Shown: positions 1 through 55,432 of the stretch, piece by piece
How positions within the stretch are numbered: the first letter of the stretch is position 1
Layout: every line of letters begins with the position of its first letter
The notes under the pieces: generated by a model
Databases searched by the model: none
What the model was told of the DNA's origin: nothing
Seen by the model: the letters and a program-made list of their open reading frames with translations, nothing else
NCBI GenBank assembly: GCA_032718475.1
Contig: JAUCBJ010006844.1
Location: 39,006-103,005 of the forward strand
Origin: Nemertoderma westbladi
Taxonomy: Eukaryota; Animalia; Xenacoelomorpha
Direction: 5' to 3'
Length of the DNA: 64,000 nucleotides
Made by a program: the position numbers and the translations under genes

Positions 1-774
1 AAAGGTAGAAATCATAGTTCGATTGTAATTTGCAGTAATCGAAGGAATTATTGAGAAACACAAGCAAAGTAATCGCACTAGCAAATCATTCCAAGAAATT
101 AATCAAAATTAGCAAATTGCAGAAAATACGATATCCTAATACAAAATTAGAGACAGCTCAGCAAGTAAATTGTAACAGGGGTGTGTCATGTGATAAGGCA
201 TGAACATATGAACAAATATATGAACAACAATATGAACAACAAAAGGCCCTACCGGCACACCGCCAATTTATAGGTGATCCGGATGGGGTGATGCAATAAG
301 GTGACTCAATCGCTCTCCCATTGGCTCTCCAGTCCATGCTAGCATTAAACCAACCTGGAAGCAGTTAATCCAATAAGGAGACCGGATTGTAGCCCTATGC
401 CCTCAAATTATTACCATATATGGTAATGGATCACGTCTCTGGCTGCTGAATGGCCAGGACAGCGTCCCTATATGCTAGCCCTATCAAACTAATATCAGCA
501 AGCACAAAATCCAGGGTCCGAGTAAACTCGCTACCCTGGAACTATCTACATATATCCTAATACAAAATTACGTAGGTAGGGCTACATACTATACAAAATG
601 AATGGATGCAAAATATATGGGCGTTTTAACTTCCTTACCTAAATGTCACCACACTGCGCCTTATCTAAATAATTATACTGCACAACAGACTAATATTACG
701 TACAGTATAACGGACTAATACTGCATACTGCATAATGGACTAATACTGTGGATACAGCGCCATATACCGTAACA
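1..774 (-). repeat. 3' LTR of element A (partial, continues beyond window start)
   Basis: Matches 16848-17621 with one visible mismatch (247 C vs 17094 T). Homology ends exactly at ...ATACCGTAACA (TGT start on - strand). Confidence 0.95.
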
Positions 775-1264: not shown

Positions 1265-3247
1265 TTATCGACCCGCTCCTGGGTTCTTTGGGCTCGCTCC
1301 TCTCTTCCGCCCCCTTCCCAGATACACTAATCGTCCTCTAGTCGACTCCGTTGACGGCGTCCGTGAGGCGTCACTCCCCGGAACCGGCGACGACGTTCCC
1401 TGAGCCCCGACAGATTCTCGGCTCGAACTTCTCCCTCGGCCTCGTCCCAATTGTCGCGCTCCCGTGGTCGCTTCCGCCAACTCTTCCTTCTGCAGTTGCA
1501 CACGCGCTTTCTCAGACGCCCCCTGCGCCTTGCGCTGCAACCGTTGCGCTTCTATAATAGAGTGGTAGTGGTCGTCCTTGACTTGACGCTTGTCTTGGAC
1601 CCCTCCTCCTGGTTCTTTCCGCGAGCCTTGAGCTCCAGCGGTCGTCGCTGTGGTCGCTGCGATCCTTTGTTCCTGTATCCTCTCGGCGGTCAATGAACCC
1701 ACTGGCACATGAGTCAACAAGAATTCGTTGCGGTATTGTATAGCCGCCATCCTCCAATCACCTCGCGCGCGTACCACTTTTCTAGTCTCCGTAAATACAC
1801 CCTTCGTGATGCGATCGCAAATAGCAACGAAGTTCCATGTGTACTTATTGTCCATGTTCAATTGTCTGAAGTATTCTCGGACTACGATAACTCCAGTGTT
1901 CTGTGGAAGGTCTTGAGAAGTTAGGATGAGCTCCTGATATTGTGGTAGCGATTGAAGATATGGCTCGTACGCAACATGCGATGGGTCTACCGCCCAAAAC
2001 CCATATCCCGCTTTAAATGGTAACCAACGCATCTGCGCTTGAATATGGTAATCCGCCACACTCTCCCACTTATCTAACATCTCCCGAAGTAGGTTAGCGC
2101 TATGGTTTTGAAAGGAATCATCTCGCAGCTGACATCTCGCGCTACGGTGTCCTTTTACTCCACAATATCCACATTGAGAAATGAAGACGGTGCACGTGTG
2201 AAACGAATGGTCGGTCTCATTGCACCAACGACAGACCTTATGCGCCGCCTCTATTACCGCGTCGCACGACTTTAGATTGTGCCTTGTGCTGCCGCACAAT
2301 TTGCACCTACGCGCTTGTGGAAACCAGGCCCTCTCGTATATGAGGTCTCCAATCGGTTTCGCACTTCCTTCCTTCCCAATGTCTAATACGATGTCGTCCT
2401 CTCCGGTCAACGGTTGTCGATCCGGAACAAAGTAAACATCCTCGCCCTTGTCCTCTATCTCCAATATTTCCTCCCGCGTTCGTTTCGGATATGTCTTCTC
2501 CACCGGAAGATCTACTCCGAACACCTCTACTAAAGTCTCCGGCCAGCCCTCCTTAACAGGTCTATCAGCCTCCGAGTGGAAGGGAGTACCAAACCCGCGG
2601 GTTTGATTCCCGAACCACTTCTCCAAAGCTTCTGGCGTCGGATATTCCATCGACGGTCGGTCTCCCAAATCTCCGATGTTCTGTCGATATACTCCTTCGA
2701 ATATCGCTAATCCTCTCCTCACCATCGACGTATTCTCTAACGACTGGTTGAAGAACGGGGTTAAGAAACGCTTCATCACGTCGGATTGGATTCCCCCTTT
2801 CGAGCGAACGTATTGATCTCCTCCGAATACCAATGGATGACGCTTCAAAACTCGCGCAACGATATCCGCTAATAAACAAGTCACCGTGTTCGACTCAAGC
2901 ACCAAATAATATTGTAGCGACGCACGGGGTGGCGCGCAAATGTTCCAATACACTAACGCTTGCCGCTTGAAGTGGGATTTGAACTCCGCTCCCGGTGGCG
3001 TGTTGTATTCGCCATACGCCTCCTCGTACTTCTTTTGCGTCTTCAACTTAAAGTCCCAATTATACAACAAGTGTGCTATAAAGCCCATACCAGTCTTGGC
3101 AGAGTTGGGATACTCCCTATAAATTCCAATATCCTGTGCCCATAGCAACAATAGCTTGGTGTCGACAAACGGTCTCGGCAATCTATCTTCCAGATCAGTC
3201 ATGGCGTTGAAGTCGCTCTCCAAATCGCTCTGGACTCCCGATCCCAC
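1265..3247 (-). CDS. ORF3 of element A, C-terminal part: second half of DEDDy (WRN/EXD-like) exonuclease domain, three CCHC zinc knuckles, RG-rich tail
   Basis: Frame is open upstream of the annotated start (VREAILNQDYVKVGSGVQSD, ExoII-like). PFVDT, GMGFIAHLL and W...LQYYLVLE (ExoIII-like) follow. Knuckles: CKLCGSTRHNLKSC, CRWCNETDHSFHTC, CGYCGVKGHRSARC. Confidence 0.85.
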   Translation of the reverse strand: MGSGVQSDLESDFNAMTDLEDRLPRPFVDTKLLLLWAQDIGIYREYPNSAKTGMGFIAHLLYNWDFKLKTQKKYEEAYGEYNTPPGAEFKSHFKRQALVYWNICAPPRASLQYYLVLESNTVTCLLADIVARVLKRHPLVFGGDQYVRSKGGIQSDVMKRFLTPFFNQSLENTSMVRRGLAIFEGVYRQNIGDLGDRPSMEYPTPEALEKWFGNQTRGFGTPFHSEADRPVKEGWPETLVEVFGVDLPVEKTYPKRTREEILEIEDKGEDVYFVPDRQPLTGEDDIVLDIGKEGSAKPIGDLIYERAWFPQARRCKLCGSTRHNLKSCDAVIEAAHKVCRWCNETDHSFHTCTVFISQCGYCGVKGHRSARCQLRDDSFQNHSANLLREMLDKWESVADYHIQAQMRWLPFKAGYGFWAVDPSHVAYEPYLQSLPQYQELILTSQDLPQNTGVIVVREYFRQLNMDNKYTWNFVAICDRITKGVFTETRKVVRARGDWRMAAIQYRNEFLLTHVPVGSLTAERIQEQRIAATTATTAGAQGSRKEPGGGVQDKRQVKDDHYHSIIEAQRLQRKAQGASEKARVQLQKEELAEATTGARQLGRGRGRSSSRESVGAQGTSSPVPGSDASRTPSTESTRGRLVYLGRGRKRGASPKNPGAGR

Positions 3248-3278
3248 CTTGACGTAATCTTGGTTGAGAATAGCCTCT

Positions 3279-4973
3279 CTAACCTTCTTTGGGTAACATC
3301 CTGGCGTCGATACGCTCCGCTCCGTGCATACCTCCTCGCCTGCATACCTCCAAAATCTGTTCCCTAGGATCCTTCCCCTTCCGATATTGTGTCGTTATGA
3401 TGGGCTCCGGTCTCTCTCTATCCGCCCTCACAAGCATAAACACATGAGTCACACCATCGGCCGCACGAATTTGAATACACTTGCTGGTCAAACATTCTTG
3501 ATGGGACCCTCCTTCATTGTCGTAGAACATCACCCTCCAATCCTGCAGTGATTCCTCCGTTTTCCTCCACTGACGCTGAATCTCATCTGATGGGGTCCAC
3601 ATGCGCTCGATCGCCTTGTGGTCATCATATCGGGTATAAGAACCCTTCCTCCTCAGCCACGTCTGGTCTACCTCCTCGTCGTCTGGGAATGTAGCCACCG
3701 CGACCCATACCTTGATGTACTTATCCAACCATCCGAATAACTTACTCTCCTTCCCCGGAGCTCCAATCTTGTCCAAAGTGTCGTAATCTGTGATCTGCAT
3801 TGGGACATCATGCAAGAACTTCGCGCATAAAACTTCCCGTAGACAGTCAACGTTCCAATGGTCCGCCATTCTTACCATCGGCAAGAATCGTATCGCTTCT
3901 CGCGACTCCGGATGATCTACTAATATCGCAGGTTCGGTACCGTCGGAATAATACACCGGTCCGGGTTGAGATACGACCTGTGGAACAAATCCGGTCACTC
4001 TCCTCGTCTCCTCTTGATGTCTATCCGCGGTCTTATTATACTCCGCTATCCTGTTCTCAAATAACTCCTTCGCCTTCGCCGCTCGCTCCTCCTGCCGCAA
4101 CGCGTCTATGTCGTCCTGATGCTCAGGCGTGAGGCTTCTCACTCGGTGAGGTGAAGTAAACGCAGTCCAGGGACTCGAGAGCTCCAAACCCGCGGGTTTG
4201 GTACCCGAGTCCCGCGCCGCTTCGCGCCGCGCCTCTAGATCCTTGTAGGCTCGGTACAGCGAAATGGCCGCTGCCGTCTCTATCAAACTGGGTGTCGAAC
4301 AGGGTTTAATCTCCGTATACGGATCTAATGTCGTAACGGTCGGCGTAATGGGTCTCGGAGGTCGCTTTCCGCTGAAGTCGATACTGATCATCGGGTTGCT
4401 CATCGGGTAACCTCCCTCGTTGTATCTAAGGAATTGGTGAGCTGGACATCGCGTTAATATCGGTTCCGGATGTTGCTCGTCTAGTCGGTCGGGAATCGCC
4501 ACGTCCTGTTTATTCATGCATTCACCACACTTGTAGAAGAGCTTGTATACGCTGAAGACTTTCGGCGTCTCCTGATCCTCGCCTCGAGTCCTCCGATACA
4601 GGTGCATTCCGTCGAACTGGTCTCGGACTGCAGGTAGAGGCTCCTCGTGTCGTAAATACATATTCATATGGTATAGTCGTGCGATTTCCTCGTCCGGATC
4701 TGCGCTAATGTCGCACACGTCCAAAGCAAAGTCGTAGGGATACCGCGTGCGATACTCTCTCCGCAAGACTTCCATCCGGTCCCCCAACGCTCTCATTCTT
4801 TCTCTCCGTAATTCTTTATCATAACTTGGTTTATACTTCCCGTTCGGCTCCATCACGGACCGCCCATGGTAGTAAACGTTAGAGTCTTTACATCCTGGTC
4901 GCGCGAATGGTAGCTCCGCCTCCTCTCTGGCAGTAAATCCTCTGCGCGGTTGCGCTCTAATATCCCTCTCCAT
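3279..4973 (-). CDS. ORF3 of element A, N-terminal part: CxxC...CxxH module and start of DEDDy exonuclease (YDNEG)
   Basis: 564-aa ORF with clear blockwise homology to 61495-63705. ExoI-like FYDNEG...CIQIR...THVF. Joined to 1265-3247 by removing 1 nt near 3282-3285. Confidence 0.85.
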   Translation of the reverse strand: MERDIRAQPRRGFTAREEAELPFARPGCKDSNVYYHGRSVMEPNGKYKPSYDKELRRERMRALGDRMEVLRREYRTRYPYDFALDVCDISADPDEEIARLYHMNMYLRHEEPLPAVRDQFDGMHLYRRTRGEDQETPKVFSVYKLFYKCGECMNKQDVAIPDRLDEQHPEPILTRCPAHQFLRYNEGGYPMSNPMISIDFSGKRPPRPITPTVTTLDPYTEIKPCSTPSLIETAAAISLYRAYKDLEARREAARDSGTKPAGLELSSPWTAFTSPHRVRSLTPEHQDDIDALRQEERAAKAKELFENRIAEYNKTADRHQEETRRVTGFVPQVVSQPGPVYYSDGTEPAILVDHPESREAIRFLPMVRMADHWNVDCLREVLCAKFLHDVPMQITDYDTLDKIGAPGKESKLFGWLDKYIKVWVAVATFPDDEEVDQTWLRRKGSYTRYDDHKAIERMWTPSDEIQRQWRKTEESLQDWRVMFYDNEGGSHQECLTSKCIQIRAADGVTHVFMLVRADRERPEPIITTQYRKGKDPREQILEVCRRGGMHGAERIDARMLPKEG

Positions 4974-5728
4974 TATGTTACGCGTATATACATATATATA
5001 TATCCCAATAAGTGCCGTTACGTAACCAACTACACTGTGGGTAAATCAGTTAGATGCCGCCGAAGGACAGACCTCCCGAACCCCCCCGCCTTCCAGCAGT
5101 TCAGGTTCGACTCTCTAGATCCCGTCTCTTCCTAACTAACTATCCTCTAACCTATTCCCATGCATAGCGCAAAACTTTGGAGATAAACTGGCCGTGACCA
5201 ACTCACTTTTTGATGCCCAAACTACTCCCATTACTCCTACTAAACTACAGTAGTTAGAAAGGACCATAGCCACAATACTCGACTATACCAAACCCACAGG
5301 TTTGATAATCGAACATCACACATCCTGCAAACTACTGAGTGGGGTCCATGTACGCCTCTGGTGCTACTAACCTTTAGCACCCTAGTTGCACTGTTGGCAC
5401 CAATCTGTGGAAGTTGCTAAACTCAATTTACACTCCTACGTAATATAGCCGTCACCATGGTTTCTAAATGCTATTTTCCAGGCTTCACGACTTTTCAAAT
5501 TACTGTTATCTATAGACGAATTCTAAAACGCGTCTATACCCAGCGTCTGGAATTGTCTTGGGTTCACTTCTAATTTTTAAAATTTTCTAATTTTCCAAAA
5601 TTTTGAAAATAAAATTTTGTTTTGATACCCACCAGACAAAACTCAACGCAAATCACCACAACCCCGCTCCTATGCATTTCCTTGTATTTGCATACGAGGA
5701 ATGCATACGAAGTGAGTTGCGTCCAACA

Positions 5729-7168
5729 CTAATTCTGTTTTGAGGCAGGAGACAAATTATAATCTCCCGTCTCGATACGTGTCTCCTCTAATAACACAAT
5801 ATCTTGGACCGGTCGGTCCAAGGTGTGTAAACCATTAGTTTTACACTTTTTTGGGTGCGGACACTTGCACCTAATTTTCACAGTGACTGTGCGCACTATG
5901 TTTTGCACGTCTGGGTGTGTGTGCAAGATCACTCCCGTCTCCCAATACTTTCTCTTGACAATGGGTTCGGTTATCAACACGTAATCTCCCCTTTGGAGAC
6001 TCCGAACCGTTTTGTACCACTTTGTTCTGGTGGATATGGTGGGAAGATAGTATTCCCGCCAATATTCCCAGAATGTGTACGCCACTAACTGTGTTACTTT
6101 CCAGCTCTTACGACTATATAGGTCGGCACTAATGGGTTCTGATGCCGGCACAAGAAATGCTGGACTCTGCATTAGCAAATGATTCGGCGTTAATGCAACA
6201 CCGTCTGGCAACATAGCTATCGGCCTCGAGTTTAGGGTATGCTCGATTTCAATGAAAGCTCTGACCAGTTCGTCGTCGGTAAGTTGTTTGTTCACAGGCA
6301 ATGTTTTGGCAATGGCCTGTTTTACAGAGCGAACTAAACGCTCCCAACTTCCTCCTCTCCAAGGACTTTCTGGAGTATTAAATCTCCACTCTACTCGTTG
6401 CGGCAAAAGTGCTGCAGAAATTTCCTTATTCTGTGCTGCTTTATGAGCCGCGTTCAACTCGCTATTCCCTCCGACAAAGTTTGTACCCTTGTCAGAGTAG
6501 AACGCCTTTACTAGTCCTCTCCTGGCCATAAATCTCTTTAAGGCCAGGAGCAGAGATTTAGTCGACATGTCTGCCACACGCTCGATGTGTATGGCTCTAC
6601 TCGCCATACATGTCAGTAGCAGACCCCATCGTTTGTGGGTCAGCCGTCCACTCTTTGCTTCAATCGGACCAAAACAGTCCACCCCTGTGTTCGTAAAGGG
6701 TGGGTCATATGCCTGCACTCTCGCTTCCGGGAGTTCAGCCATCTCCTGTTCCAATACTCTGGCGTTCACCCTCTTGCAAACCAGACAGGCGTCGTACATA
6801 GTGCCGACTGCCCTGCTTGGCTGCAATAGAATGAATCGCTGTCTCGCTGCCGACAGACAGTGTAACTTTCCCGCGTGATGCAACCTCTTGTGTATATCCC
6901 ATAGAATCGCTCTTTGCAATTCTATTGGGTGACTAGGGATTATCACTGGGAACCGAAACTGTGAGTTTATGTCGACAGTCTGGATTCTCGATCTATGACA
7001 AATCAAACCCTTATGGATTAACGGACTCCATTTTCTAAGGGGTTTATAGAGAACTGGTCGTTGAGCCGATAATAGATGGAATTCTTTCGGGAAGGCACAC
7101 ATTTGATAATGCTTCAAATGCTTTAATTCCGCTTGATCAATCTCATCCTCTGTCAGAGGTTGTTTCAA
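5729..7168 (-). CDS. Integrase of element A (in frame with gag-pol behind a single TGA)
   Basis: H..LHH...CLVC zinc motif, VDCFGP, SDKGTNF, WERLVRSVK (DDE core), BEL-type C-terminus (YLPTISTRTKW). Same frame as 7178-14167. Confidence 0.95.
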   Translation of the reverse strand: MKQPLTEDEIDQAELKHLKHYQMCAFPKEFHLLSAQRPVLYKPLRKWSPLIHKGLICHRSRIQTVDINSQFRFPVIIPSHPIELQRAILWDIHKRLHHAGKLHCLSAARQRFILLQPSRAVGTMYDACLVCKRVNARVLEQEMAELPEARVQAYDPPFTNTGVDCFGPIEAKSGRLTHKRWGLLLTCMASRAIHIERVADMSTKSLLLALKRFMARRGLVKAFYSDKGTNFVGGNSELNAAHKAAQNKEISAALLPQRVEWRFNTPESPWRGGSWERLVRSVKQAIAKTLPVNKQLTDDELVRAFIEIEHTLNSRPIAMLPDGVALTPNHLLMQSPAFLVPASEPISADLYSRKSWKVTQLVAYTFWEYWREYYLPTISTRTKWYKTVRSLQRGDYVLITEPIVKRKYWETGVILHTHPDVQNIVRTVTVKIRCKCPHPKKCKTNGLHTLDRPVQDIVLLEETRIETGDYNLSPASKQN

Positions 7169-7177
7169 TTTCCGAAT

Positions 7178-10100
7178 TCACTCACTATTGGCGCTCGATG
7201 GTTCTCTCAAATGTTTCGAATGTTTTAAACAAAGGTACGAAACGTATCGGCTCAACCACGCAGTTCTTTTACAAATTGTCAGCCAAGAGGCAGACGAATT
7301 TAGTAATTTGTCATAAACACTGCATGACTCTAATGCCAGCGACGGTTGTCCGCTAACCAATGGAAGTTTCGAATCCAAACCCGCAGGTTTGGAAACCAAA
7401 GGCTCCATTGTGTCGGTCATTTTCTGTCCGTCACTTACCAATTGTGACTGTCGTCCAGTCTGTAAGGGTGGTTTTATGTCATAACTTACCCTTCCTGACC
7501 TAGTAGTCACGTAAGTCTGTTGGTCTGACAGGTCTCCGGGCCGCTCCAATAACTCTTCAGGCCGCTCCAATGACTCTTCAGGCCGCTCCAATGACTTAAG
7601 TTTGGCTTTAGACTTTGACTTAGAGACTTTCTCCACTTTGACTTCTGCATCTTCAGGCATCGGATTGGTCACTATCTTTAGTCGCTCTGGCCAATGTTCC
7701 TGTGTCCTCGTTAGAAAATTAGGTCCATGTAACCAAAACTCCTGCGACTCTTCCTGACAGAATTCCGCTGGCATTGCAACTCTCGAAGTTATGTCGGCCG
7801 GGTTCAACACTCCCGGACAATGTCTCCATTGTTCCTTCGTCGAAAAATCAACGATCTGAGCGCGTCTATTGGCCACAAATGTCTTTAGTGCAATATTGTC
7901 GGCCGCAATGTATACTAACACCAAGGATGCGTCCGTCCAATAGAATAAGGTCAATGTCGTATCTAATTCCTCAGTTATCTGCTTACTTACCTCGACTGAA
8001 ACTACAGCCGCCTGTAACTCTGCACGAGGGACAGTCATGTATTTGACCGGCATTGTCTTTGATCTAGAAGTCACAAAGGCCGTCTCAAATTTGTCCTGAC
8101 TTACCTCTCGGCGAAGGTAGGCTACCATACCAAAGCCGGTGTCACTTGCGTCACTGAACAGATGCAGCTCTAAATCAGTTGGAAATACCAGCTGATTCGG
8201 AAAGTAGGAACGGGGTACATCTATATTTTTCAACAGATGCAACTCGGCTTCCCACTCCCTCCACTGCTTTGCATGTATAGGAGATATTGGTTCGTCCCAC
8301 TCTAAGTCGGACAACCAAATTTTCCTCATGCACGCTCGTGCCTGTAATATAACCGGACTGATAAAGTTCATCGGGTCAAATAGTCTACTTAAAGTCGATA
8401 AGCAAATTCTCTTTGTCAAAACTTTGTCTGGGCTACTGGGCTCAAATCTAACTCTTACCTGGAACTTATCCGAATTCGGATTCCAAGCGAGTCCCAGTAC
8501 TCGCGCCATGGGGATTGGTTCTACCCCCAATTCTATGTCTCCGCTCCCGCGATCTTTTACCGGGAACGATTCTAATAGGGCCTCCGAATTAGTAGTGAAC
8601 TTGGTCAGAGGAAATCCCCCTGTAGCCAAGCACTCTTGCAGGCCGTGAGCCACTTCTATGGCTTGTTCCGCCGTGTCCTTGGACACCAATCCGTCGTCCA
8701 TATAGAAGTTTCTCAAGATAGACTCGATTACTTCTACTGGATACTTACCAATCTGGGCTGTTGCCGTTTTCTTTAGAACGAACAGCGTGCCATTCGGACT
8801 ATCGCGGGCGCCAAATATCCTAACGTACATTTGGTATATAACCACTGGGCCGGATAAGTCTTCATTCTCAAACCAGAGAAAGCGAAGGCTATCCTGGTCT
8901 GCCTTACAGGCTCTTACCTGGTGGAACATCGCCTCGATGTCACAAGTAAATGCGAATCGCCGCTGTCTAAAACGCAACAGTATTCCTATCAAATAGTTAT
9001 TCAGGTTGGGACCATCCATCAACTCTGAATTCAGGGACATACCTCTATAGACTGCTGCGCAGTCGTTGACTACTCGGACTTTGTCAGGTTTGTCAGGGTG
9101 AGTCACATAGTGGTGTGGAAGGTAATAAGTCTGGTCTGTCACTAAGTCAGGGTCCTCTACCTTCCCAGCAAATCCCTTGGCGAAATAGTTGTTGATCTGG
9201 GCGCAATACTTCTCCCTAATGTCTGGATTCTTCAACAACCGAGCCCTTACTCCGTTTAATCTTTTCAAGGCTAAGTTGTAGTTGTTCTCCAACTTAGGTG
9301 GTTGTCGACGCCACAACATTCCAACTTCAAAATGTCCAGTCGGTAGCAGACGTATGGTGTCTTCCATCATCTCCAACGACCGTTTTTCATCAGTAGACAT
9401 GGCTAGGTCATATCCACCGGGTTCCATTGCGTCCCTATCCAGCCATTCGACGGTTCTGGCTCCTGTCTCGAGGTCCTGGCGTATCAATTCCTTCTGTAAT
9501 TCCTCCTCACTGTATTGGAAAATGTCTAGGTCTCGATATTTAGCCACTTGACCCTCCACTATGTCTGTATAAGTCAAAACGTTAGTCAAATAAGTAGCGT
9601 GGGCCGCTGAACCAGACCCACGGGTCTGATAACAGTAGTCCTCGGGTTCACTATCTGTCCGGTCGTTATGAAGTGGTTCCGACAACCTAACATTATCGGG
9701 AATCAACTCCTCGTCCGACTCGCTAAAGTCACTATAGTGGTCAATACAGGTTCTCCTAAACTCGTCTATGTCTGGTGGTTCTACTAACGGTGGTTGAGTT
9801 ATAGGCTGTAATTCGTCGTATCTGTTCATTGGCTTGTCGCCACCTGTAAACTCATAAGACATAGGTACTCTTGTATACCAACCTAGTATGGTCCTATGGG
9901 CATGTGGTCCATTGACATGCGGCTCAGCTGGTCTCGTTTCCCATATTTGGTGTGCGATCAGCTGTTCTGCACCAATCAACATAGAAACATTCCTATAACC
10001 TACCTGGTGTCTTGGTACTCTGAGCTTGTCAAAATACTCCTGTGCTATGGGACTCATCGGCGGCACCTTACCTAACTGCCTGCCGAATCCCTTCATAGCT

Positions 10101-13100
10101 AGACACTTAAATCCGTCCAATGGCAAAGCTTTCCGTTCTTGTCGAGTGTGTTGGTCTCTCGGAAGTAGGGAATCTAGTTCTACCGAAATTCTGTGTCCCT
10201 TGAGGTCTCCTACCCCGTGCATAGACTTCAACTCTATTTGGATCTCCTCGGCGTCCTGGAAGCTAGAAACGGCTCTCGCCACTTCCTCGTCGATATACGA
10301 TAATGTGGACGCAGTGTCCAACATCACATATATTCGCTTTGATCCCTTATCGCCAGTAAGTTTCACCGGAATCACGCTAAATATTTCCGACGTGGCCGAT
10401 GATAAATACGTCCGTGCGCTGGTCGATGAACTATCCGCGGTGAAACCTTGGCAGGTCACTTCTCTCGCGCTCGACTCGCCATCCTCGTCCGACGAACCTG
10501 GTTGGTAACCATCGTCCTGAATGCCGGTATACGTATTCCTCCTTATCGATACGGGTTCTTTGCTCCCCTTCCTTTGAGGATTTCGCTGTAAGTAACGGTC
10601 CGTCGGGGTGTGGAAATCCGCATGTAGCAACTTGTGATGTAGTCTGCCGCATTCCATGCATCCGTCCTTGCTGTTCGGGCACTGCCGCCGTACATGACCT
10701 GGCGCAAGACATGCCCAACAGGTGTCCAACGTCCGCACTTGAACTCTTCTCTGTTCCGAATTTAATTCTTTGAACCGTCTGCAACTATCTAACTTATGGT
10801 CGTCAGATCTTACCTCCTTTAGTAAACAGTATTGGCAACCTACAAATCCATCCGGCAACTCCTGTTGCTTTAACCTAGGTCTATCTAACCGCTCACCTGA
10901 CCATACTCGCGAGTCTGATCTAAAGGCTGGGGTACTCGAATTATATCTGTCTACTGAGTTAAATGTCACAGTGGTCCTGTCATCGTCAAAACTTACCATA
11001 GACTTACCGGTAACAGGTTTAGACTCCCTCATATTCTCTTCTGAGAAGTTTGATTTCATCTCTGCTACTGCGTCTGTGGCTATCATGTCATGAATATGCT
11101 GAAGTGTCAATACTTTACCTTGGCCCTCCAACTTATTCTCTAATTTACGCCATTTCTGTCGATAACGCATGTTTAAACGTCTTATTACGCTTTTCAAAAC
11201 TTCGGCGTGATCACCATGATGAGGTAGATTCACCGTCCTCAAGATGTCCAATGCGTTCGAAATAGCGTTCGCTAAGTTCAACAGCTCTAACGGAGTTGTA
11301 ATCCTTCCGCCCTTACCCAAGTCTTCTACTATCGACTGCGCCATCTTCGTTTTATTCCCGTAGATGTCACTAAGCGTCTTCATCGCTAACTCGAATGCCC
11401 TTTCATTGCCGACGAAGTTATCAGCAATGGCTCTAGGTTCTCGATGGAGCATCTGAAGCAAATAGTTGAACTTCTCGTTGGGAGTAAAGGTGCTGTTGGT
11501 TAGCTGCTCGTCGACATAGGTTTTGAAGGTCCTCCAGTGCTTGTGGTTGCCCATAAACTTCTGGGGTTGTTGCGTCGGCAGTCCTTGCCTAGCAGCAAAC
11601 TTACCTATGTCCCTAAGGGTTGCGTCGTTCCGGGTTAACAAATGGTTTAGTTCCGCAGGGTTGTTAAGTCTGGTCCTTTCCCGGTGGTTCCAACTTACCT
11701 GCTCCGCGTCGGTCCTTCTTTCCTTATAGTTTCGGGACTTCTGACGTCTCATGTCTTCCTCTTCATCACTCGATTCTGTGTCAGTCCTTAGCACTCGCGA
11801 TGGTTTGCGCGCTGAGGCCCTGACCCAAGCGTCCTGAATAAATTTCTCGGCCGAATTTTCGAAATTGGGATTAGAGATGTTCGGGACAGGCGTCCTTACC
11901 TGAGGTCTATGTGGTATAGTCTCCTCCGATATGCGTACTCGTTGACTAGGCTGGACTTTATCTAACTCAGGCCTGCTAGGATTTGAATTACTTCTTACCT
12001 GGGCTGCTTCCTTTAACCGTAGGTTGCTAAGCATGTCCGTTATAGGTTGGATGTGCGGCGATATAGCTTGCGCTAAACTAGCACTTAACTCATCCCTCGT
12101 AATAAATTCCTGGCTAGGGTTCTGTTGTATAGTCGGCTCTATCTGAGTAATCCGCTGTCTCTCATATGATCCCTCTTCCGGTTTAACCCGGAAGTTCTCC
12201 GTCGAACTGGGTCGGCGCTCCGTCCGCGTATTCCAAACCCGCGGGTTCGGTTCGCCCAATACTCGGCCCGTCGGAGTTTCTTCTCTAAATTCTTCGTTGT
12301 CGCGTTCGGTGTATAGTGGTGCGGTGTTCTGATGCCGTGGATTCTGCGCGATAGGTGAAGCACTAATACCAACTGGCGTGCGATATGTAGAGAATGGTTT
12401 AGCGATCCGTGTACTCGTAATAGCTGGACCGGGTATAGGAATTCTGGTCGTCGTCGACTCGCGTATGGTCGGAGTTCTCGCTTCCTGTTCGGCCTTCTGC
12501 AGTGCGAACAGTTCTCGCAACTCTGTCCCTACACTCGCCCCACATTCTTCGATCATTCGCATCCCCTTCTCGGCGATTTCGTTCGCCTTCCTAGTCCGTT
12601 CTTCGCTCTCTAAACTTAATCTCGCACTTTCCAACTGCGCCAGTTTACGCTCTTCTTCTTCCCTCGCTCGTCTCGCTGCGCTCTCTTCTTCCACTCGCGC
12701 CTTTTCTTCATACAATGCGCGTCTTCTTTTCTCGATCTCGAGTTCGCGTTCCTTGCGTCCGCGTTCGAGTTGAAGCTCGCGCTCCTTCTGTTCACGATCG
12801 AGTTTCTTGCGCTCGCGTTCGGCTTGGAGTTCGCGTTTCTTCGCTTCCTGTTCGCGTTCGAGTTGGAGTTCGCGTTTCTTCGCTTCCCGTTCGCATTCAA
12901 GTTGGAGTTCGCGTTTCTTCGCTTCCCGTTCGCGTTCTCTCTGTTCGCGTTCGAGTTCCTCGCGCTCGCGCTCGGCTTGGAGTTCACGTTCCCTTTGCTC
13001 GCGTTCCGCTCGCTCGCGCTTACTTATCTCTTCCAACTCTCGTAACTCTGCGTCCAACTTACGTGTGCGCTCCCGTTCCCGCTCGGCTTCCTTCCGTGCT

Positions 13101-14167
13101 TCCTGTGCACGCAAAACTTCCGCCTGCTGTTCGTCTAGTCGGCGTCTTCTCTCCTCCGCCGAGTTGTGAGAAACAAGGGATCTAGCACATATTACCTTAC
13201 CTCGCGCGTGACTAACCTGGGAATCGCCGCTGTCTCTAGATGCGTCGTCGGGTGGAGTCAACGTCCTCTGTTGAATGTTCTCCGTCGTCGGTAGCACCTG
13301 GCCTGGTACCACCACTCCATTCTGCATCAGCCAGCTAGTAACTTCCCTCTGATAACGGCGCTCTTCCTTATCTTGGATCTCTTCTCGCTCCACTAACTCT
13401 CTCAACTCTGCGTCACTCACTTGAGTCGCCTGCGCTTGTGATGCCCATAGCAGCCAGTTCTCCGTCCTAACTCGTCGGAATCGCTCCGATAACTCGCGGT
13501 GCTCCAACAAGGCTGCTAAAACCCTGTCGTAAATCCTCGTCGCCACGTCGCTCGACTGAGACTCTACTGCCTTCTTCGCTAGGACTGCAAGCTCCTCCGT
13601 CTGCTTGAATAACGCTGAGTTATATCCTCTTCTAATCTCTACTAACTCTACCCTCCCGATGTTCGCTGGGTCAGCTAACATCTTCCTTACCTTGTCCGCC
13701 GTCCGGGTTATATGTCCGGCATGCGCGCGAAGTTTCTTCTTTATCGCGATATCGAACTCTCTATCACTCACCTGACTTACGCTCGGTGGACTTGAAGGAT
13801 TATTTCGGGAACTACGGGTACTCCTAACAGCCGTCGGGACCACGGCACTTACCATACCCACAGGTCTGGAAACCGGGCTCCGGGCTCTCGCTTCTGCTAC
13901 ACTACCCTCCCTATCACTCACCTCTGTCCGGGCTGCTGTACAGTCCTTCCTTACAGTAGCGGTAGGGGATCCTAATACTATTACTTGAGGTTGTTGTTCT
14001 TCCTCACTAGTCACTGTCTCGTCCTCCTGTTCACTTACGTCAGCGTCGCTCGCTGCGTCGTCATAGTCGGCATTGTCATCAACAGTAATGTTTACGCTAT
14101 CGTCAGTCGGCGGTCCAGCCGCCGTCTCGTAGCTGTCCTCTAGTGCCTCCTTGTCTGAGACACTCAT
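7178..14167 (-). CDS. gag-pol: BEL/Pao gag-pol polyprotein of element A (coiled-coil, gag, Cys/His motifs, aspartic protease, RT, RNase H)
   Basis: KFMGNHKHWRTF/EKFNYL gag core. CQYC..H..C, CWACLAPGHVRRQC, CMECGRLHHKLLH. LDTAS protease. YYLPHH and YMDD in RT. FSDAS, PRAELQAA, WTDA, NPADITSR in RNase H. Confidence 0.96.
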   Translation of the reverse strand: MSVSDKEALEDSYETAAGPPTDDSVNITVDDNADYDDAASDADVSEQEDETVTSEEEQQPQVIVLGSPTATVRKDCTAARTEVSDREGSVAEARARSPVSRPVGMVSAVVPTAVRSTRSSRNNPSSPPSVSQVSDREFDIAIKKKLRAHAGHITRTADKVRKMLADPANIGRVELVEIRRGYNSALFKQTEELAVLAKKAVESQSSDVATRIYDRVLAALLEHRELSERFRRVRTENWLLWASQAQATQVSDAELRELVEREEIQDKEERRYQREVTSWLMQNGVVVPGQVLPTTENIQQRTLTPPDDASRDSGDSQVSHARGKVICARSLVSHNSAEERRRRLDEQQAEVLRAQEARKEAERERERTRKLDAELRELEEISKRERAEREQRERELQAEREREELEREQREREREAKKRELQLECEREAKKRELQLEREQEAKKRELQAERERKKLDREQKERELQLERGRKERELEIEKRRRALYEEKARVEEESAARRAREEEERKLAQLESARLSLESEERTRKANEIAEKGMRMIEECGASVGTELRELFALQKAEQEARTPTIRESTTTRIPIPGPAITSTRIAKPFSTYRTPVGISASPIAQNPRHQNTAPLYTERDNEEFREETPTGRVLGEPNPRVWNTRTERRPSSTENFRVKPEEGSYERQRITQIEPTIQQNPSQEFITRDELSASLAQAISPHIQPITDMLSNLRLKEAAQVRSNSNPSRPELDKVQPSQRVRISEETIPHRPQVRTPVPNISNPNFENSAEKFIQDAWVRASARKPSRVLRTDTESSDEEEDMRRQKSRNYKERRTDAEQVSWNHRERTRLNNPAELNHLLTRNDATLRDIGKFAARQGLPTQQPQKFMGNHKHWRTFKTYVDEQLTNSTFTPNEKFNYLLQMLHREPRAIADNFVGNERAFELAMKTLSDIYGNKTKMAQSIVEDLGKGGRITTPLELLNLANAISNALDILRTVNLPHHGDHAEVLKSVIRRLNMRYRQKWRKLENKLEGQGKVLTLQHIHDMIATDAVAEMKSNFSEENMRESKPVTGKSMVSFDDDRTTVTFNSVDRYNSSTPAFRSDSRVWSGERLDRPRLKQQELPDGFVGCQYCLLKEVRSDDHKLDSCRRFKELNSEQRRVQVRTLDTCWACLAPGHVRRQCPNSKDGCMECGRLHHKLLHADFHTPTDRYLQRNPQRKGSKEPVSIRRNTYTGIQDDGYQPGSSDEDGESSAREVTCQGFTADSSSTSARTYLSSATSEIFSVIPVKLTGDKGSKRIYVMLDTASTLSYIDEEVARAVSSFQDAEEIQIELKSMHGVGDLKGHRISVELDSLLPRDQHTRQERKALPLDGFKCLAMKGFGRQLGKVPPMSPIAQEYFDKLRVPRHQVGYRNVSMLIGAEQLIAHQIWETRPAEPHVNGPHAHRTILGWYTRVPMSYEFTGGDKPMNRYDELQPITQPPLVEPPDIDEFRRTCIDHYSDFSESDEELIPDNVRLSEPLHNDRTDSEPEDYCYQTRGSGSAAHATYLTNVLTYTDIVEGQVAKYRDLDIFQYSEEELQKELIRQDLETGARTVEWLDRDAMEPGGYDLAMSTDEKRSLEMMEDTIRLLPTGHFEVGMLWRRQPPKLENNYNLALKRLNGVRARLLKNPDIREKYCAQINNYFAKGFAGKVEDPDLVTDQTYYLPHHYVTHPDKPDKVRVVNDCAAVYRGMSLNSELMDGPNLNNYLIGILLRFRQRRFAFTCDIEAMFHQVRACKADQDSLRFLWFENEDLSGPVVIYQMYVRIFGARDSPNGTLFVLKKTATAQIGKYPVEVIESILRNFYMDDGLVSKDTAEQAIEVAHGLQECLATGGFPLTKFTTNSEALLESFPVKDRGSGDIELGVEPIPMARVLGLAWNPNSDKFQVRVRFEPSSPDKVLTKRICLSTLSRLFDPMNFISPVILQARACMRKIWLSDLEWDEPISPIHAKQWREWEAELHLLKNIDVPRSYFPNQLVFPTDLELHLFSDASDTGFGMVAYLRREVSQDKFETAFVTSRSKTMPVKYMTVPRAELQAAVVSVEVSKQITEELDTTLTLFYWTDASLVLVYIAADNIALKTFVANRRAQIVDFSTKEQWRHCPGVLNPADITSRVAMPAEFCQEESQEFWLHGPNFLTRTQEHWPERLKIVTNPMPEDAEVKVEKVSKSKSKAKLKSLERPEESLERPEELLERPGDLSDQQTYVTTRSGRVSYDIKPPLQTGRQSQLVSDGQKMTDTMEPLVSKPAGLDSKLPLVSGQPSLALESCSVYDKLLNSSASWLTICKRTAWLSRYVSYLCLKHSKHLREPSSANSE
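12720..13050 (-). repeat. Coding tandem repeats (~39 bp) producing the E/R/K-rich coiled-coil of gag
   Basis: Repeated GAGTTCGCGTTTCTTCGCTTCC units, translated as AKKRELQLERE-type repeats. Confidence 0.85.
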
Positions 14168-16847: not shown

Positions 16848-17621
16848 AAAGGTAGAAATCATAGTTCGATTGTAATTTGCAGTAATCGAAGGAATTATTG
16901 AGAAACACAAGCAAAGTAATCGCACTAGCAAATCATTCCAAGAAATTAATCAAAATTAGCAAATTGCAGAAAATACGATATCCTAATACAAAATTAGAGA
17001 CAGCTCAGCAAGTAAATTGTAACAGGGGTGTGTCATGTGATAAGGCATGAACATATGAACAAATATATGAACAACAATATGAACAACAAAAGGTCCTACC
17101 GGCACACCGCCAATTTATAGGTGATCCGGATGGGGTGATGCAATAAGGTGACTCAATCGCTCTCCCATTGGCTCTCCAGTCCATGCTAGCATTAAACCAA
17201 CCTGGAAGCAGTTAATCCAATAAGGAGACCGGATTGTAGCCCTATGCCCTCAAATTATTACCATATATGGTAATGGATCACGTCTCTGGCTGCTGAATGG
17301 CCAGGACAGCGTCCCTATATGCTAGCCCTATCAAACTAATATCAGCAAGCACAAAATCCAGGGTCCGAGTAAACTCGCTACCCTGGAACTATCTACATAT
17401 ATCCTAATACAAAATTACGTAGGTAGGGCTACATACTATACAAAATGAATGGATGCAAAATATATGGGCGTTTTAACTTCCTTACCTAAATGTCACCACA
17501 CTGCGCCTTATCTAAATAATTATACTGCACAACAGACTAATATTACGTACAGTATAACGGACTAATACTGCATACTGCATAATGGACTAATACTGTGGAT
17601 ACAGCGCCATATACCGTAACA
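16848..17621 (-). repeat. 5' LTR of element A (minimum extent; inner boundary not determinable)
   Basis: Identical to 1-774 except one base. Begins TGT at 17621 and abuts an RTE relic. Confidence 0.95.
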
Positions 17622-49813: not shown

Positions 49814-51743
49814 AAAAGCGCAAACAATAACAGATATTGCTTCTAGATTGCGGTGTAAGCAATCTAGTCGAAAGTACCGGTCAACCGGTAATCTGTAGGC
49901 CTAACTGCCTGATCACCCGGACCGGTACCTACAGCAGTACAGGTACAGCAGTATTATTCGATTGTGGTATTGTATACCGGTAGGCCTTAATAATTAATCA
50001 GGGACTGCAGCCCTGGTTTTTTATTGAGACTTTTACTTATTTCTGTCAGTTTTTATTTACTAGTAGGCTGATATTGAGCAGAAGGCGTGTAAGCCTGCTC
50101 AGATTGTACAGATAATTTGTAGGCTTGACTGTTGTCTAACTGTTGTTAAGTCTGAACGGGTTGCAGTGTGTGTAGAGCATCTGTCCGATAAAGTGCTAGT
50201 TGGGAAAGTAGGGGCTTCAAGTGCTGTGAGGTAAACCCCCTGTGAAAGAATAAGTCGTACTACTGGGTTAGAACGCATACTAACTAATCATTTCGGAGTC
50301 TGCATATACCGTAGTTTGTTTAGGCTTGATAGTAGTCGGTCAGTATTTGGTCTGCATTTTGTTTGAGTAGTTTGTACGCGTAGCGTAATATTTATTATTC
50401 AGAGTTTATGCTATTATTCGCAACATTCATTCCCCAAGTTTATTCCTACAGTAATTGTGCTTGTTATACATACCGTTATAGTTAAACTAACCCCAGTACT
50501 ACATCAGGGCTGCTCGGCGTAGGTAAAGGCTGGAGATTGTATGCTTTGGTCACTCCGGCAGATACCGTGGTTCTTTTAGCTGTTCAAGTATTTTTAACGA
50601 CTGATTATTTGTTGTACAAGTATTTGTACCTAATTTAGGGTTTAGTGTACAGTGCTTTCCGAAGGTAATTAGCGTGTAGGCAGTATATTTGTGTTGTAAA
50701 GTGGTTAATAGGCACGTCGGTTCTGGTAGACCGCGGTAATTAACTTCTGGGTAGGAACACTCCGTGATACATAACGTAGTACCTATAGCGATACGGCTAT
50801 AGGTCGTCAGACGGTGGCATTTTCCTATCTGGACAGCGCAATATATTTACTACTACTTATTATTGTCAAATACCGTAGTAACCTGTCCGTTGTAATAACC
50901 AGATATTCTAACCCTTTGTTAGGCTGGTTAGTAGACTTCTTGTAAAATTACCCTAAAAATTCGTATTTGTGTATTATTTTGTAATTAAATTTTTGTGTTT
51001 ATTTAGAGATTGTAATCTCACCTCGATTTGTATGTAATTTGTAGTATTAAGTAACTTAGGTAAATTATAATTATTTGTTTTAGTGTCTAACAAGTAGCAC
51101 TCCACTGAGAGCGCACAGCTTCTGTGTAGTGACTCCCCCCCAGAAATAATAATATTTATTTCAAACATTGACAAAAACCCATTTAAACGGGTATATATAT
51201 ATATTATAAATCAACTCAAACGATTTATAAATAGTAGGCCTGCCATACAACAATTAGGTCTCAATATCAGTTGGACTACTGCTTAAATAACGGTAATAAA
51301 GTAAGTTAAAGTAACCAAGTAACCCTTAAAATTCAGAAATTCAATTATTCTAAAATAATTGATATACCGGTATTTACAATAGGCTTATTATCTTTATTTC
51401 TATAAATTTAGGTTGAAATTATACCGGTATTCTGTAATTAATTCTAGTCTGTAATTATACTTATATATATACATTATAAGTGTAAGCTGTATACCGGTAT
51501 TCACGATAGGCCTATTATATATTTATATATATTTGTGCTAAATTTATATACCGGTATTCTGAGAAAAACCTAGTCTGTAATAAAATTTATATATACTATA
51601 AGCATACCGGTATTCTAATATATTATATTATATATATATCACGCTACACGGAGTAGCAGTATCGGTAATTAATTACTAGGCTAGCAGTTAATACTGAATT
51701 ACTAGACTTGCTTAGACTGTAATATAGCAGTAGGCATTCAACT

Positions 51744-54700
51744 GTGCACACAAACATGTCTGATACTAAGCAGAACCAGTCAGACAGTTTATTAGATGTA
51801 ACTATCTGCGACTCAGATAGAGGTGTAGAACCGTCTAGTCCTAAGTTCAGTTCACCTCCCACTGTGAGGAAGGTCATCCCTCCAGTAGTAATATCAGAAC
51901 CTAGGCTGGTCCAACACCATAGGTCTATCATAGGCACTCGAGCTCAGGTCAAGCGGGACCAAGAAGCAGCGGAACAGCAACAACCCGCGAGCCAAGAACT
52001 TATTTCTCAGCGGCCCGACAGCTCCAGTAGTGAAGATACTGCAGAGCTGACACCCGAGCGCGGAGTGAAGATGACGGATGCTGTTTATTCGGATCCCCTT
52101 CTCATCCTTCCTGCAGCCGTACTCACTAGGATATTGATCGCGGTGGAAGAACACCAGATCGATTGGGCGAGAAGTCAGCGATCAACTAAAGATAGTTATG
52201 CGGGATACACAAGGGAAGAACTGAAGTCTATTGTCGAGTCGCAATGGAACTTCCCCGGACCCGGACTCCCGTTTGATTTATCAGAAGCTGCCTGGGAAGA
52301 CATACACCGGATGGGAGTAGCCAAGGAAACCATCGATCCAGCTGTGTGGAAGAGGTCCGCAGCCGGATACGCACAGGGATTCTTCAGCTCTATGGAGCGA
52401 GTAAAAGGACAACTGTTTCAACAACCACAAGGACCTCAAGAGCAGGGACAACTGCTTTATCAAGTTAGAGAAAGAATTCTGCGAATCAGACTAATCTTAT
52501 CGGCCTTTGAGGAGGCTTCTAAAAGAAGACAAGACACGTCGTTGCAAGTTGCCGTAAAGACTTGGTTTCAACGGGTGAGTCTCCAGGTTCAAGGAACGGC
52601 TCAGTGGAAAGCTCAGCTGGAGGAGCGCTCAACCCATGGAGAATCAACAGACGCTACTTTTTCCCAAGTGGAAAGTGAAGCGACGGCAGAGAAGCTGCAT
52701 AAGAGGGATGCCATTGACATCTATCTGTCAGACTATCAACGTTTTTTAGGTGATGAAGAGTTGAGGAGAAGGTTAGATGGACTTAGCCCTAATAGTGAAG
52801 GAACTCAGCGTGTGTTGGATGCCATCGATGTGGAAATGAGGGCTGCGAACCAGGCTAAATTTGATGAACAACTCCGCATCACACGAGTCCAAGAAGAACA
52901 AGTAAAGAAAAAACGTATAGAAGACAGAAAGAAAGCAGCAGTAGCAGCTGCCGAAGCGGAAAGGAAAGCAGCCGAAGAGGAAAGTAAAGCAGCCGAAATG
53001 GGAAGAAAAGCGGCAGCGGCAGCGGCAGCGGCAGAGGCAGAAGCGAAAAGAAAAGCAGCCGAAATGGAAAGAAAAGCGGCAATGGCAGCGACAGAAGCAG
53101 AACGGATAGCGGCTGAAGAGATCGCCCAATTAGAACTGGAAAATATTCAGGAGAATCAAGACTGCATAAATAAACAGTTAACAGCTAGTAATATGCAGAT
53201 GATGAATCGATCTACTCCCAAAAGACAGGGATATACATCATCTGAGGAAGGCGATACCACCGATACTGAAGGCAAAGGAAATAGATCTCGTCTAAGCAGA
53301 CGTAAAAGAACATCCCACCGTCAGAAATTGCCTGATTTGCCTCCAGCTGTTAGAAGGCAACTAAATAACACCAACTTAGGTAGTACAGAACCCACAGACC
53401 AAATAATTACAATAGAAAGACTCCCTACTATAGTAGATGAGCCTGAAATAATTAGGCCTGTTCTTGAAATCACCCCTTCGGTGATAGAGACACCTGTGCT
53501 CCCTGAACCTACCTCTAAATTCCCTCTGCACAGCACTAAGCTACCTGTGCCCAGTAGAACAGCCCATGAGACAGTTCAGGTCCTGGACTCCGAGCGAAAT
53601 ATTCATGATTTGTCGCCCGTTGTCCCTCGTCCGCCCGCTACAACGTTGGCGAATCCCGCTTCGGCGGTCGAATGGGTGGATGAGAGACGACGGGGGATGG
53701 ATCTCCTGCTCGGACAGATGCAGGAGACCGTTCAGCAATTCAAGGGCACAGTAAGGGAAAGTAGGTTAGAGTTGCAAGAAGTGCAGCAAAGTATCGCGCT
53801 AGAACGCGATAAATTAGTAAATACACAAAGGGGTATACCACCACCCCCTGTAACAATGTGTCAACCTGTTAGGTCTGAAGTATCTCATGCGCAAGGTGTG
53901 GAGCCTACACGCATCTATACTGCTAGCGAAGTAGAAACTCCTATAGTGAACCCTATTAAGGGTAATTATAGACCTGTTGATAATGACATTCCCTATAGAC
54001 CTGATCATAATCCGAGAAATTTATATACCGATAACTCGATATTAAATAACACGATGGCCCAAGAAAGTTTTACGCGTCAAATGGCTAGAACCGAAGCCCG
54101 GCAAGCGGTAAAGGTGGGAGAGATAGTCAAGTTCAATGGAGATGAGATGAAATGGTTACCTTTTAATGAATATTATAAAGATAACATACAGAACTCTGTA
54201 CTATCTAATGGAGAGAAACTTAGATTCCTCATCGAGTGCTTGGAAGGATCTCCCAAGTTAATGGCGTTAAAGTTTATTGGACATCCAGACGGATTAAGAC
54301 AAGTTTGGGATACACTAAACATCAGGTATGGTAATAGGAATAACATAGCTAAATATTTGTATGCAAAATTAGTAGCGCCCCGAAAGTTCATTAGCAGCGG
54401 GATAATAGAGTTTTCCGATGAGATTCAAGAGATCTGTAGACAATTAGATTGGTTAGGTAAGTCTCATGAATATCAGAGTTCTATGGTTATTGGAGCCGTG
54501 GCTTCTACTTTACCGAAGGGTGGAGTAGGTACACGCTGGGATAAGAAAGTGTTATATATGATGGAACAACAACGACGAGACCCTACCATGGCTGATCTCA
54601 TGTCATTCCTAGATGGAGAAGTGAAATTACAGCTCCTAAAACTGTCCAGAGAGAAGACACCGGAAAACAAGGTAAGTGAAAAACCCGTCTCTAGGAGAAA

Positions 54701-55426: not shown

Positions 55427-55432
55427 TTTCCT

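Follow-up and report, generated by a model that had tools for sequence, protein, structure and literature searches.

A BEL/Pao retrotransposon of Nemertoderma westbladi with a third gene for a predicted DnaQ-like exonuclease with three CCHC knuckles

Structure of the BEL/Pao elements

The window considered here is the whole analysed stretch of 64,000 nucleotides from Nemertoderma westbladi. It contains two BEL/Pao elements, both of which have gag and pol genes of the BEL type, with DUF1759, Peptidase_A17 and DUF5641 and the domain order PR-RT-RH-IN. Their features are as follows.

16848..17621, minus strand: 5' LTR of element 1, at least 774 nt, starting with TGTTAC; its partner leaves the window and its inner end is not fixed
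7178..14167, minus strand: gag-pol of element 1, with DUF1759, a knuckle, a protease motif, RT motif YMDD and Peptidase_A17
5729..7177, minus strand: integrase part of element 1, with Integrase_H2C2 and DUF5641
1265..4973, minus strand: third gene (ORF3) of element 1, 1235 residues when an X bridges the single frameshift near 3280-3290
1..774, minus strand: 3' LTR of element 1, truncated at the window start, from the LTR comparison
51723..54995, plus strand: gag of element 2, a divergent BEL/Pao element
55427..59863, plus strand: pol of element 2, likewise divergent
61495..64000, plus strand: third gene of element 2, with the N-terminal module, ExoI YDNEG and ExoII; leaves the window

The LTRs of element 1 match at 773 of 774 nucleotides (99.87%, one difference) in the self-comparison of the window, and the element is young. 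Its length exceeds 17.6 kb, and it has a long leader. The gag-pol frame closes at an in-frame stop, after which the integrase part resumes in the same frame. For the primer-binding site, which in BEL/Pao elements pairs with tRNA-Arg or tRNA-Gly, three CA-TGG candidates were observed, none of them matched to a tRNA, the inner end of the 5' LTR being not fixed. A self-priming complement was sought in 360 nt inside the 5' LTR, with one 9-mer as the only result, and the purine run ahead of the 3' LTR is short.

The third gene lies between the integrase ORF (7177-5729) and the 3' LTR (from 774), the partner LTR starting at 17621. The LTR pair and the BEL-type gag and pol domains confirm what the sequence-only reading had proposed, a BEL/Pao element with a third gene in place of env. 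A homologous third gene occupies the matching position in two of the two BEL/Pao elements of the window, and their pol proteins share only 45% identity in RT/RNase H and 37% in integrase. The third gene of element 2 has an in-frame stop at 63703-63705.

Integrity and selection of the third gene

In element 1 the gene is split into ORF A (ATG at 4973, 564 codons, stop at 3281-3279) and ORF B (3394-1265, 709 codons from stop to stop), both on the minus strand. The homologue in element 2 crosses the break point in a single frame (tblastn, 26% identity, E 3e-11). The sites that vary among copies are nearly all synonymous when read in frame A upstream of the break (16 of 17) and in frame B downstream of it (21 of 22). 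Thus the two ORFs form one gene, and the earlier suggestion that frames of about 564 and 660 amino acids make up one frameshifted gene of about 1235 residues holds. Three runs from two studies disagree with the window copy at the break in 87-95% of contig depth, and hence the break is either an assembly error or confined to this copy. Some contigs jump over 1984 or 329 bases of the third gene, so that parts of it are missing in some copies.

The nuclease region has 39 variable sites among further copies of this family; 37 of these are synonymous, as compared to about 34% expected, and the five catalytic codons contain none. Over the whole third gene 20 of the 25 listed sites are synonymous (6/9 in the integrase control). 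The third gene is under purifying selection across a multi-copy family.

A host gene or a separate element trapped between the LTRs, with no role in the retrotransposon, could also account for the locus, as the eight outside homologues described below could be cellular genes. However, two divergent elements have the gene at matching positions, in element 1 it is enclosed by LTRs that are nearly identical, and a family of many copies keeps it under strong selection. The window self-comparison revealed no separate termini flanking the gene. This explanation, named at the outset as one that could overturn the proposal, is already largely refuted and very improbable. The third gene is almost certainly an accessory gene of the element.

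Domains of the encoded protein

The following regions were mapped on the third gene of element 1.

4160..4790, minus strand: N-terminal module CxxC...CxxH (C149, C152, C176, H179), scoring 158 where shuffles reach 64 at most
2830..3590, minus strand: predicted nuclease region, from profile matches, the structure model and motif conservation
2305-2264, 2233-2192 and 2173-2132, minus strand: three CX2CX4HX4C knuckles, from a motif scan
1920..2130, minus strand: unnamed family-specific domain 3' of the knuckles, [FW]ExxAD...R...G[FL], E 0.001 in the window
1265..1620, minus strand: Arg/Gly/Ser-rich tail, with RGRG at 1444-1433

The motifs occur in the proposed order: YDNEG (3524-3510), CIQIR (3479-3465), THVF (3449-3438), VKVG (3253-3242), PFVDT (3172-3158), GMGFIA (3091-3074) and LQYYLVLE; the last lies at 2917-2894, slightly off its earlier placement at about 2891-2911. 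The triple CCHC knuckle and the RGRG tail are likewise present, at 2305-2132 and 1444-1433. The N-terminal module, described before as a Zn module, is indeed conserved between elements 1 and 2, its zinc binding being putative. It was not found in the eight outside homologues, gave zero matches in Pfam, PDB or the ESM Atlas, and belongs to no known family.

The knuckles are about 190 residues away from the nuclease part. Individually they score under the Pfam cut-off; the family profile matches Lin28 knuckles at E 1.5e-6, and they also resemble those of nucleocapsid and of Trypanosoma brucei RNase D. The protein has no signal peptide or transmembrane anchor of the kind that marks env, as judged by a hydropathy scan. 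The peak 19-residue hydropathy is 1.34, the N-terminus is non-hydrophobic and the predicted fold is that of a nuclease, in agreement with the initial view that the protein is not env.

Homologues

Eight remote homologues were found by a HMMER search of the whole library (E 1e-11 to 7e-4). They share a layout of exonuclease, three knuckles and the unnamed C-terminal domain. The homologues, P0003 to P0010, come from contigs of 2.5-13.2 kb. A nuclease profile made from the homologues only, without window sequences, detects ORF B (E 2e-17) and element 2 (E 8e-5). The best PDB match of the homologues' whole profile is human EXD2 (E 1.4e-6). In a tree without eukaryotic members, the element family groups apart from the bacterial rows (WRN-like, RNase D and PolA) with support 100/98. 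The nearest ESM Atlas cluster to the homologue P0004 is of the euglenozoan exonuclease-CCHC type represented by T. brucei RNase D (score 0.86), to be taken as a lead only.

No Pfam match was observed for ORF A, ORF B, the protein read with X at the break or the nuclease segment, and no meaningful NCBIfam match for the third-gene protein. The window proteins escaped detection by HMMs for the bacterial WRN-like, RNase D and PolA domains, and word-seeded homologue searches returned nothing or the query itself. Two-row hhalign comparisons were marginal (E 0.01 and 0.002; 23.1, with shuffles reaching 26.4). In a blind block test 7 of 150 shuffles equalled the window copy and ExoIII was not placed. 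Thus the motif order, from which the sequence-only reading had derived a DnaQ-like family, is weak by itself; the assignment became firm once the homologues were added.

ORF B, P0004, P0003 and P0009 were not located among viral contigs, nor were the two-row alignment and P0005 among metagenome contigs. The only PDB match from the sequence of the single protein or from two-row profiles, one of 59 residues to rotavirus VP4 (E 0.002-0.06), was rejected as chance, since the fold is that of a nuclease. Plasmid matches were also due to chance only.

Predicted fold and catalytic site

The structure model made from a 9-row alignment has pLDDT 70 and pTM 0.70. The earlier 2-row model reached pLDDT 39 and gave no match in Foldseek, and thus the fold model hinges on the 9-row alignment. 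The top VIA-align match has Z 12.1 (rmsd 3.5, 178 residues aligned), and the 50 matches listed are 3'-5' exonucleases or polymerases bearing one. Among the matches listed are Nibbler (Z 12.1), PolA-type domains (11.7), WRN (11.2), RNase D (11.2), EXD1 (10.2), T. brucei RNase D (TbRND; 9.7) and Egalitarian (9.5). The model and the homologue profile both match DnaQ-like exonucleases, and the predicted DnaQ-like DEDDy-type fold is very probable. As for the subfamily, the profiles lean towards EXD2/WRN-like proteins, as proposed, but Nibbler, RNase D and PolA-type domains are not separable from these (Z 11.2-12.1, within 1). Identity to the top fold and profile matches, Nibbler/MUT-7, WRN exonuclease, EXD2, EXD1 and Egalitarian, is just 7-16%.

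ExoI D485 and E487 and ExoII D583 are in register with WRN-like proteins. The ExoI acids are conserved in 8 of 8 covering rows, the ExoII acid in 9 of 9, and the ExoIII acid in 8 of 8, P0003 being omitted from the last count. The expected ExoIII Tyr is present in a YxxxE motif; the fourth acid is Glu, and not Asp as in the DEDDy set first assumed. It is Glu in the element 1 protein and two homologues, one of them P0004, and Asp in five, among them P0005, and the catalytic set of element 1 is D-E-D-E. The protein is probably an active metal-dependent 3'-5' nuclease.

The domain may instead be catalytically dead or weak and the protein, as with EXD1 or Egalitarian, an RNA-binding adaptor by which element RNA is transported, shielded or localised. 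EXD1 and Egalitarian are both among the structure matches, the ExoIII Glu is non-canonical, the predicted fold has large insertions, the tail is basic and RG-rich, and the nuclease part of P0003 has decayed and lost its motifs. DEDD derivatives that only bind RNA are known, namely EXD1 and Maelstrom (available text of PMC5408684). However, in every other covering row all four positions are acidic, with Asp/Glu swaps only, which fits a metal-binding constraint, and the adaptor role is improbable.

EXD2 and WRN cut DNA as well. A DNA substrate would imply that the cDNA copied from a very long genome is proofread or has its ends cleaned, and indeed PolA-type proofreading domains and WRN equal the RNases in the structure comparison and the element genome is long. 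On the other hand, hhalign places the family profile closer to stand-alone WRN-like proteins, with 94% and E 9e-8, than to domains of the PolA type, with 33% and E 5e-4, the nuclease is not fused to RT, and the Lin28-like knuckles suggest RNA. Action on DNA is quite improbable.

Comparison with known systems

The closest precedent is in bdelloid rotifers, whose Juno1/2 and Vesta2/5 LTR retrotransposons have an ORF3 encoding a DEDDy exonuclease (PMC5408684, available text), in line with the earlier remark that such third ORFs had been reported. As there, a DnaQ-like DEDDy gene with altered acids and no transmembrane segment follows pol in the env slot. The rotifer elements belong to other LTR lineages and have the motif DEED, whereas here the lineage is BEL/Pao and the motif D-E-D-E. 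The triple knuckle, the long N-terminal module and the C-terminal domain have no counterpart in the description of the rotifer ORF3 in that text, which also states that no clear link between ORF3 and copy number was found.

TbRND (PDB 7C42/7C45) also has a DEDDy exonuclease followed by tandem CCHC fingers, with a knuckle match at E 5e-4 besides the nuclease match. It is a cellular guide-RNA trimmer with four fingers adjoining the nuclease (PMC7797062, available text), whereas here there are three, about 190 residues off, in a retrotransposon. The likeness is one of layout and scores, orthology being only putative.

With Belpaoviridae the elements share LTRs, the DUF1759 gag, the Pao peptidase A17 and the order PR-RT-RH-IN (PMC8742986; PMC3118150, in the parts available). 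The third gene described there is exclusively env-like and genomes span 4.2-10 kb (PMC8742986), as opposed to a nuclease gene and more than 17.6 kb here. No BEL/Pao element with an exonuclease gene was found in a literature search that was thin on subscription papers, Repbase reports and supplements, which agrees with the first impression that the architecture is unfamiliar in this group. DEDDy third genes in rotifer elements were thus known already, and a BEL/Pao element with a knuckle exonuclease is apparently new. Known BEL/Pao elements have gag and pol, some also env; the two divergent members described here bear a selected 3.7-kb nuclease gene, whose protein family escapes Pfam.

Possible function

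Our best overall reading, a tentative one, is that of an element-encoded 3'-to-5' ribonuclease which grips single-stranded RNA and acts on host silencing RNAs. A BEL/Pao lineage carries, downstream of integrase and ahead of the 3' LTR, a gene under purifying selection for a predicted DnaQ-like exonuclease with three knuckles, which would be translated from a separate, probably spliced RNA like env genes. An acceptor-like site precedes the gene. Catalysis would involve two metals, with Glu as the fourth ligand. By analogy, the substrate is likely RNA, the strand being held by the knuckles as may occur in trypanosome RNase D, which needs its zinc-finger domain to bind and cleave RNA strongly (PMC7797062, available text). 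Short RNAs of the host silencing pathway would be trimmed or destroyed to the benefit of the element. The least secure step is the target, which may be the small guide RNAs or their precursors, or else element RNA that has been sliced and feeds guide production. Such an anti-silencing role has somewhat less than even chances. That the unnamed exonuclease-knuckle family is a Nibbler-like, retroelement-encoded suppressor of piRNA/siRNA in animals, its module acquired independently by BEL/Pao and Gypsy, is doubtful.

Small RNAs are not specifically favoured over the element's own RNA by any result. The nuclease could act on RNA for the element's own replication, trimming the 3' end of the genomic RNA, the primer or RNase H leftovers in or near the particle. 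The nucleocapsid-like knuckles, the unusual length and long leader of element 1 (against 4.2-10 kb; PMC8742986) and its tRNA primer site, which is not assignable, are consistent with this, and it is the first role suggested for the rotifer ORFs in the available text of PMC5408684. However, BEL/Pao elements replicate on gag and pol, env being optional (PMC8742986), and since the third gene is separate from gag-pol, packaging would not be automatic. A role in replication is somewhat unlikely.

Under the anti-silencing reading, elements with such genes may come equipped with a means of their own to handle or evade small-RNA defence. The gene is an assayable candidate for the long-open question of whether animal retrotransposons encode suppressors or manipulators of this defence. 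The 2011 survey of BEL/Pao set an upper bound of 15 kb for full-length elements (PMC3118150, available text); element 1 exceeds it, and thus such elements may have been missed.

Structure of the elements

The window contains a BEL/Pao element on the minus strand (element 1) and a divergent BEL/Pao element on the plus strand (element 2). The following features were observed.

17621-16848 and 774-1, minus strand, direct repeat (LTRs) of element 1: 774 bases, 99.87% identity, one difference
14167-7178, minus strand, gag-pol ORF of element 1 (DUF1759, Peptidase_A17)
7177-5729, minus strand, integrase ORF of element 1, behind an in-frame stop (Integrase_H2C2, DUF5641)
4973-3279, minus strand, ORF A of the element 1 third gene
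3394-1265, minus strand, ORF B of the element 1 third gene
51723-54995, plus strand, gag of element 2 (BEL/Pao)
55427-59863, plus strand, pol of element 2 (BEL/Pao)
from 61495, plus strand, third gene of element 2, assigned by homology: in-frame stop at 63703-63705, leaves the window before ExoIII

The direct repeat encloses the third-gene region together with the gag-pol and integrase ORFs. Element 1 is a BEL/Pao element, as the domains of these ORFs and their order demonstrate, in agreement with the sequence-only reading. Its 3' LTR extends beyond the window. At more than 17.6 kb it is longer than the BEL/Pao elements of the ICTV profile, where Belpaoviridae genomes measure 4.2-10 kb (PMC8742986). 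Short repeats occur at 15179-15447 within a non-coding leader of about 2.7 kb (14170-16850, perhaps partly LTR), in which no primer site was recognised. Next to element 1 lies a fragment (17622-18357) that is 81% identical to a LINE-like element at 42403-44758, whose endonuclease and RT-like ORFs were labelled by eye; thus, judging by sequence, element 1 probably inserted into a LINE copy.

ORF A and ORF B, joined with one X at the break, yield 1235 residues containing all the motifs listed initially. Three lines of evidence demonstrate that they are one gene, as had been proposed. Firstly, the third gene of element 2 spans the equivalent of the break in one frame (26% identity, E 3e-11); the two elements are 45% identical in RT/RNase H and 37% in integrase. 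Secondly, the frame in which variation is synonymous changes from A to B at the break. Finally, 87-95% of contig depth in public runs differs from the window copy at the break, and therefore the frameshift either belongs to the window copy alone or arose in assembly. Both BEL/Pao elements of this one window carry the third gene, the 3' LTR of element 2 not being visible in it.

In element 1, RNase H and integrase are divided by an in-frame stop (7180-7178); element 2 is open across this region. The element 1 copy thus has two breaks, although its LTRs differ at one base; these are either a defective template or assembly errors. Acceptor-like sites were seen by eye before both third genes: CTAAC ... 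CAG at 5053-5035, and CAG at 61490-61492, three bases 5' of the element 2 ATG. A six-codon upstream ORF (4993-4971) has a stop overlapping the ORF3 start (TAATG).

Selection on the third gene

Variation was read from public-run contigs (1000, 572 and 447 records, two studies). The region 2780-3620 has 40 variable sites; with one row at the break left out, 37 of 39 are synonymous (16/17 in frame A, 21/22 in frame B), the share expected for transitions being about 34% (binomial p about 1e-15). No catalytic codon (D485, E487, D583, ExoIII) is hit by these 39 sites. Gene-wide, 25 sites were listed, drawn from the 40 best-supported of 374 rows, and 20 of them are synonymous; five of the 25 are shared with the former set. 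The third gene is a real, selected accessory gene of BEL/Pao elements, and selection this strong, acting on a family of many copies, implies a benefit to the element. Internally deleted family copies exist, since 3100-5085 and 4498-4828 are skipped in contigs of run X6.

Nuclease domain

Standard searches with the third-gene protein were blank (NCBIfam, PDB sequence, word-seeded homologue search, and Pfam, which the sequence-only reading had suggested). A profile of 56 bacterial domains (WRN-like and RNase D) was used for a blind block test: six of seven blocks fell on the motifs noted initially, ExoIII being missed. The result was significant for element 2 (0/150 shuffles, four blocks) and marginal for element 1 (7/150), whose own gag-pol scored equally high.

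The decisive evidence came from a HMMER search of the whole library with native ORF B, which found eight proteins (P0003-P0010; 514-727 residues, E 1e-11 to 7e-4) on contigs of 2.5-13.2 kb, their clusters having one or two members. Their common layout runs from a nuclease-like N-terminal part through a variable linker and a block of three Cys/His knuckles to a conserved domain that has no name. In P0003 the knuckle-plus-C-terminal unit is present twice and the nuclease part is decayed. A profile of the homologues' nuclease part alone recovers ORF B at E 2e-17. Against PDB, the full profile matches human EXD2 best, at E 1.4e-6 and with the three Exo motifs all aligned in register; its match to WRN is weak (E 0.18). 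Meanwhile, hhalign of the family with bacterial WRN-like proteins gives 94%, E 9e-8.

The domain was modelled from nine rows, excluding the decayed P0003 (pLDDT 70, pTM 0.70). Foldseek matches are EXD2, RNase T, NrnC and Nibbler (best E 9e-4). VIA-align ranks Nibbler first (Z 12.1, rmsd 3.5, 178 aligned), followed by apPol (11.7), WRN and RNase D (11.2), EXD1 (10.2), T. brucei RNase D, TbRND (9.7), and Egalitarian (9.5). The predicted DnaQ-like exonuclease fold is secure; the WRN/EXD subfamily named in the original DEDDy assignment is not, given the close scores of Nibbler, apPol and WRN/RNase D. A tree of the family has bacterial outgroups only and long branches.

D485 and E487 of ExoI are kept in 8/8 rows covering them, and D583 of ExoII in 9/9. 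ExoIII retains Tyr in 7/8 and an acid in 8/8: Glu in the window protein, P0004 and P0010, Asp in five. Since this acid switches only between Asp and Glu, the alignment suggests that the metal site is kept.

Knuckles and N-terminal module

Each of the three CX2CX4HX4C knuckles alone is under the Pfam cut-off. The family profile, however, matches Lin28 (E 1.5e-6), retroviral nucleocapsids and TbRND, bearing out the triple knuckle. A CxxC...CxxH module in the N-terminal 460 residues is conserved between elements 1 and 2 (score 158, shuffle maximum 64); it was not found in the eight homologues and has no known match in PDB or ESM Atlas. A hydropathy scan detected no signal peptide or membrane segment, and the protein is, as first stated, not env.

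Possible function

DEDDy third ORFs have been described in the bdelloid elements Juno and Vesta (PMC5408684; restated in PMC5718144, PMC6431247, PMC6338049). A BEL/Pao survey taking 15 kb as its full-length upper bound does not use the word "exonuclease" in its main text (PMC3118150). No BEL/Pao element with an exonuclease gene was found in the literature, most subscription papers being outside the scope. What is new here is the nuclease-knuckle family in BEL/Pao elements, which is previously unrecognised.

The closest characterised architecture is TbRND, an exonuclease that binds RNA through tandem CCHC fingers, which also make its trimming much stronger (PMC7797062). On this model, single-stranded RNA would be gripped by the knuckles and basic tail, and the DEDDy-type domain would take bases off its 3' end; host small-RNA silencing might thereby be disturbed to the element's benefit. 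We tentatively rank interference with silencing first, on two grounds: enzymes of that pathway are among the closest animal relatives by fold (PMC5408684), and the BEL/Pao elements described so far replicate with no gene of this kind. That the element processes its own RNA in this way seems somewhat less likely, although no result separates this from silencing interference. A dead RNA-binding adaptor is rather improbable, and editing of cDNA is the least probable of these readings.

Other features of the window

A satellite array occupies 26032-41000 (52-base period, about 286 units). An element with long inverted termini (20985-25443) contains a transposase-like ORF pair (21862-24717, labelled by eye) holding a 562-base tandem duplication. 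Another tandem duplication, of about 1180 bases and 99.6% identity, lies at 47456-49813.
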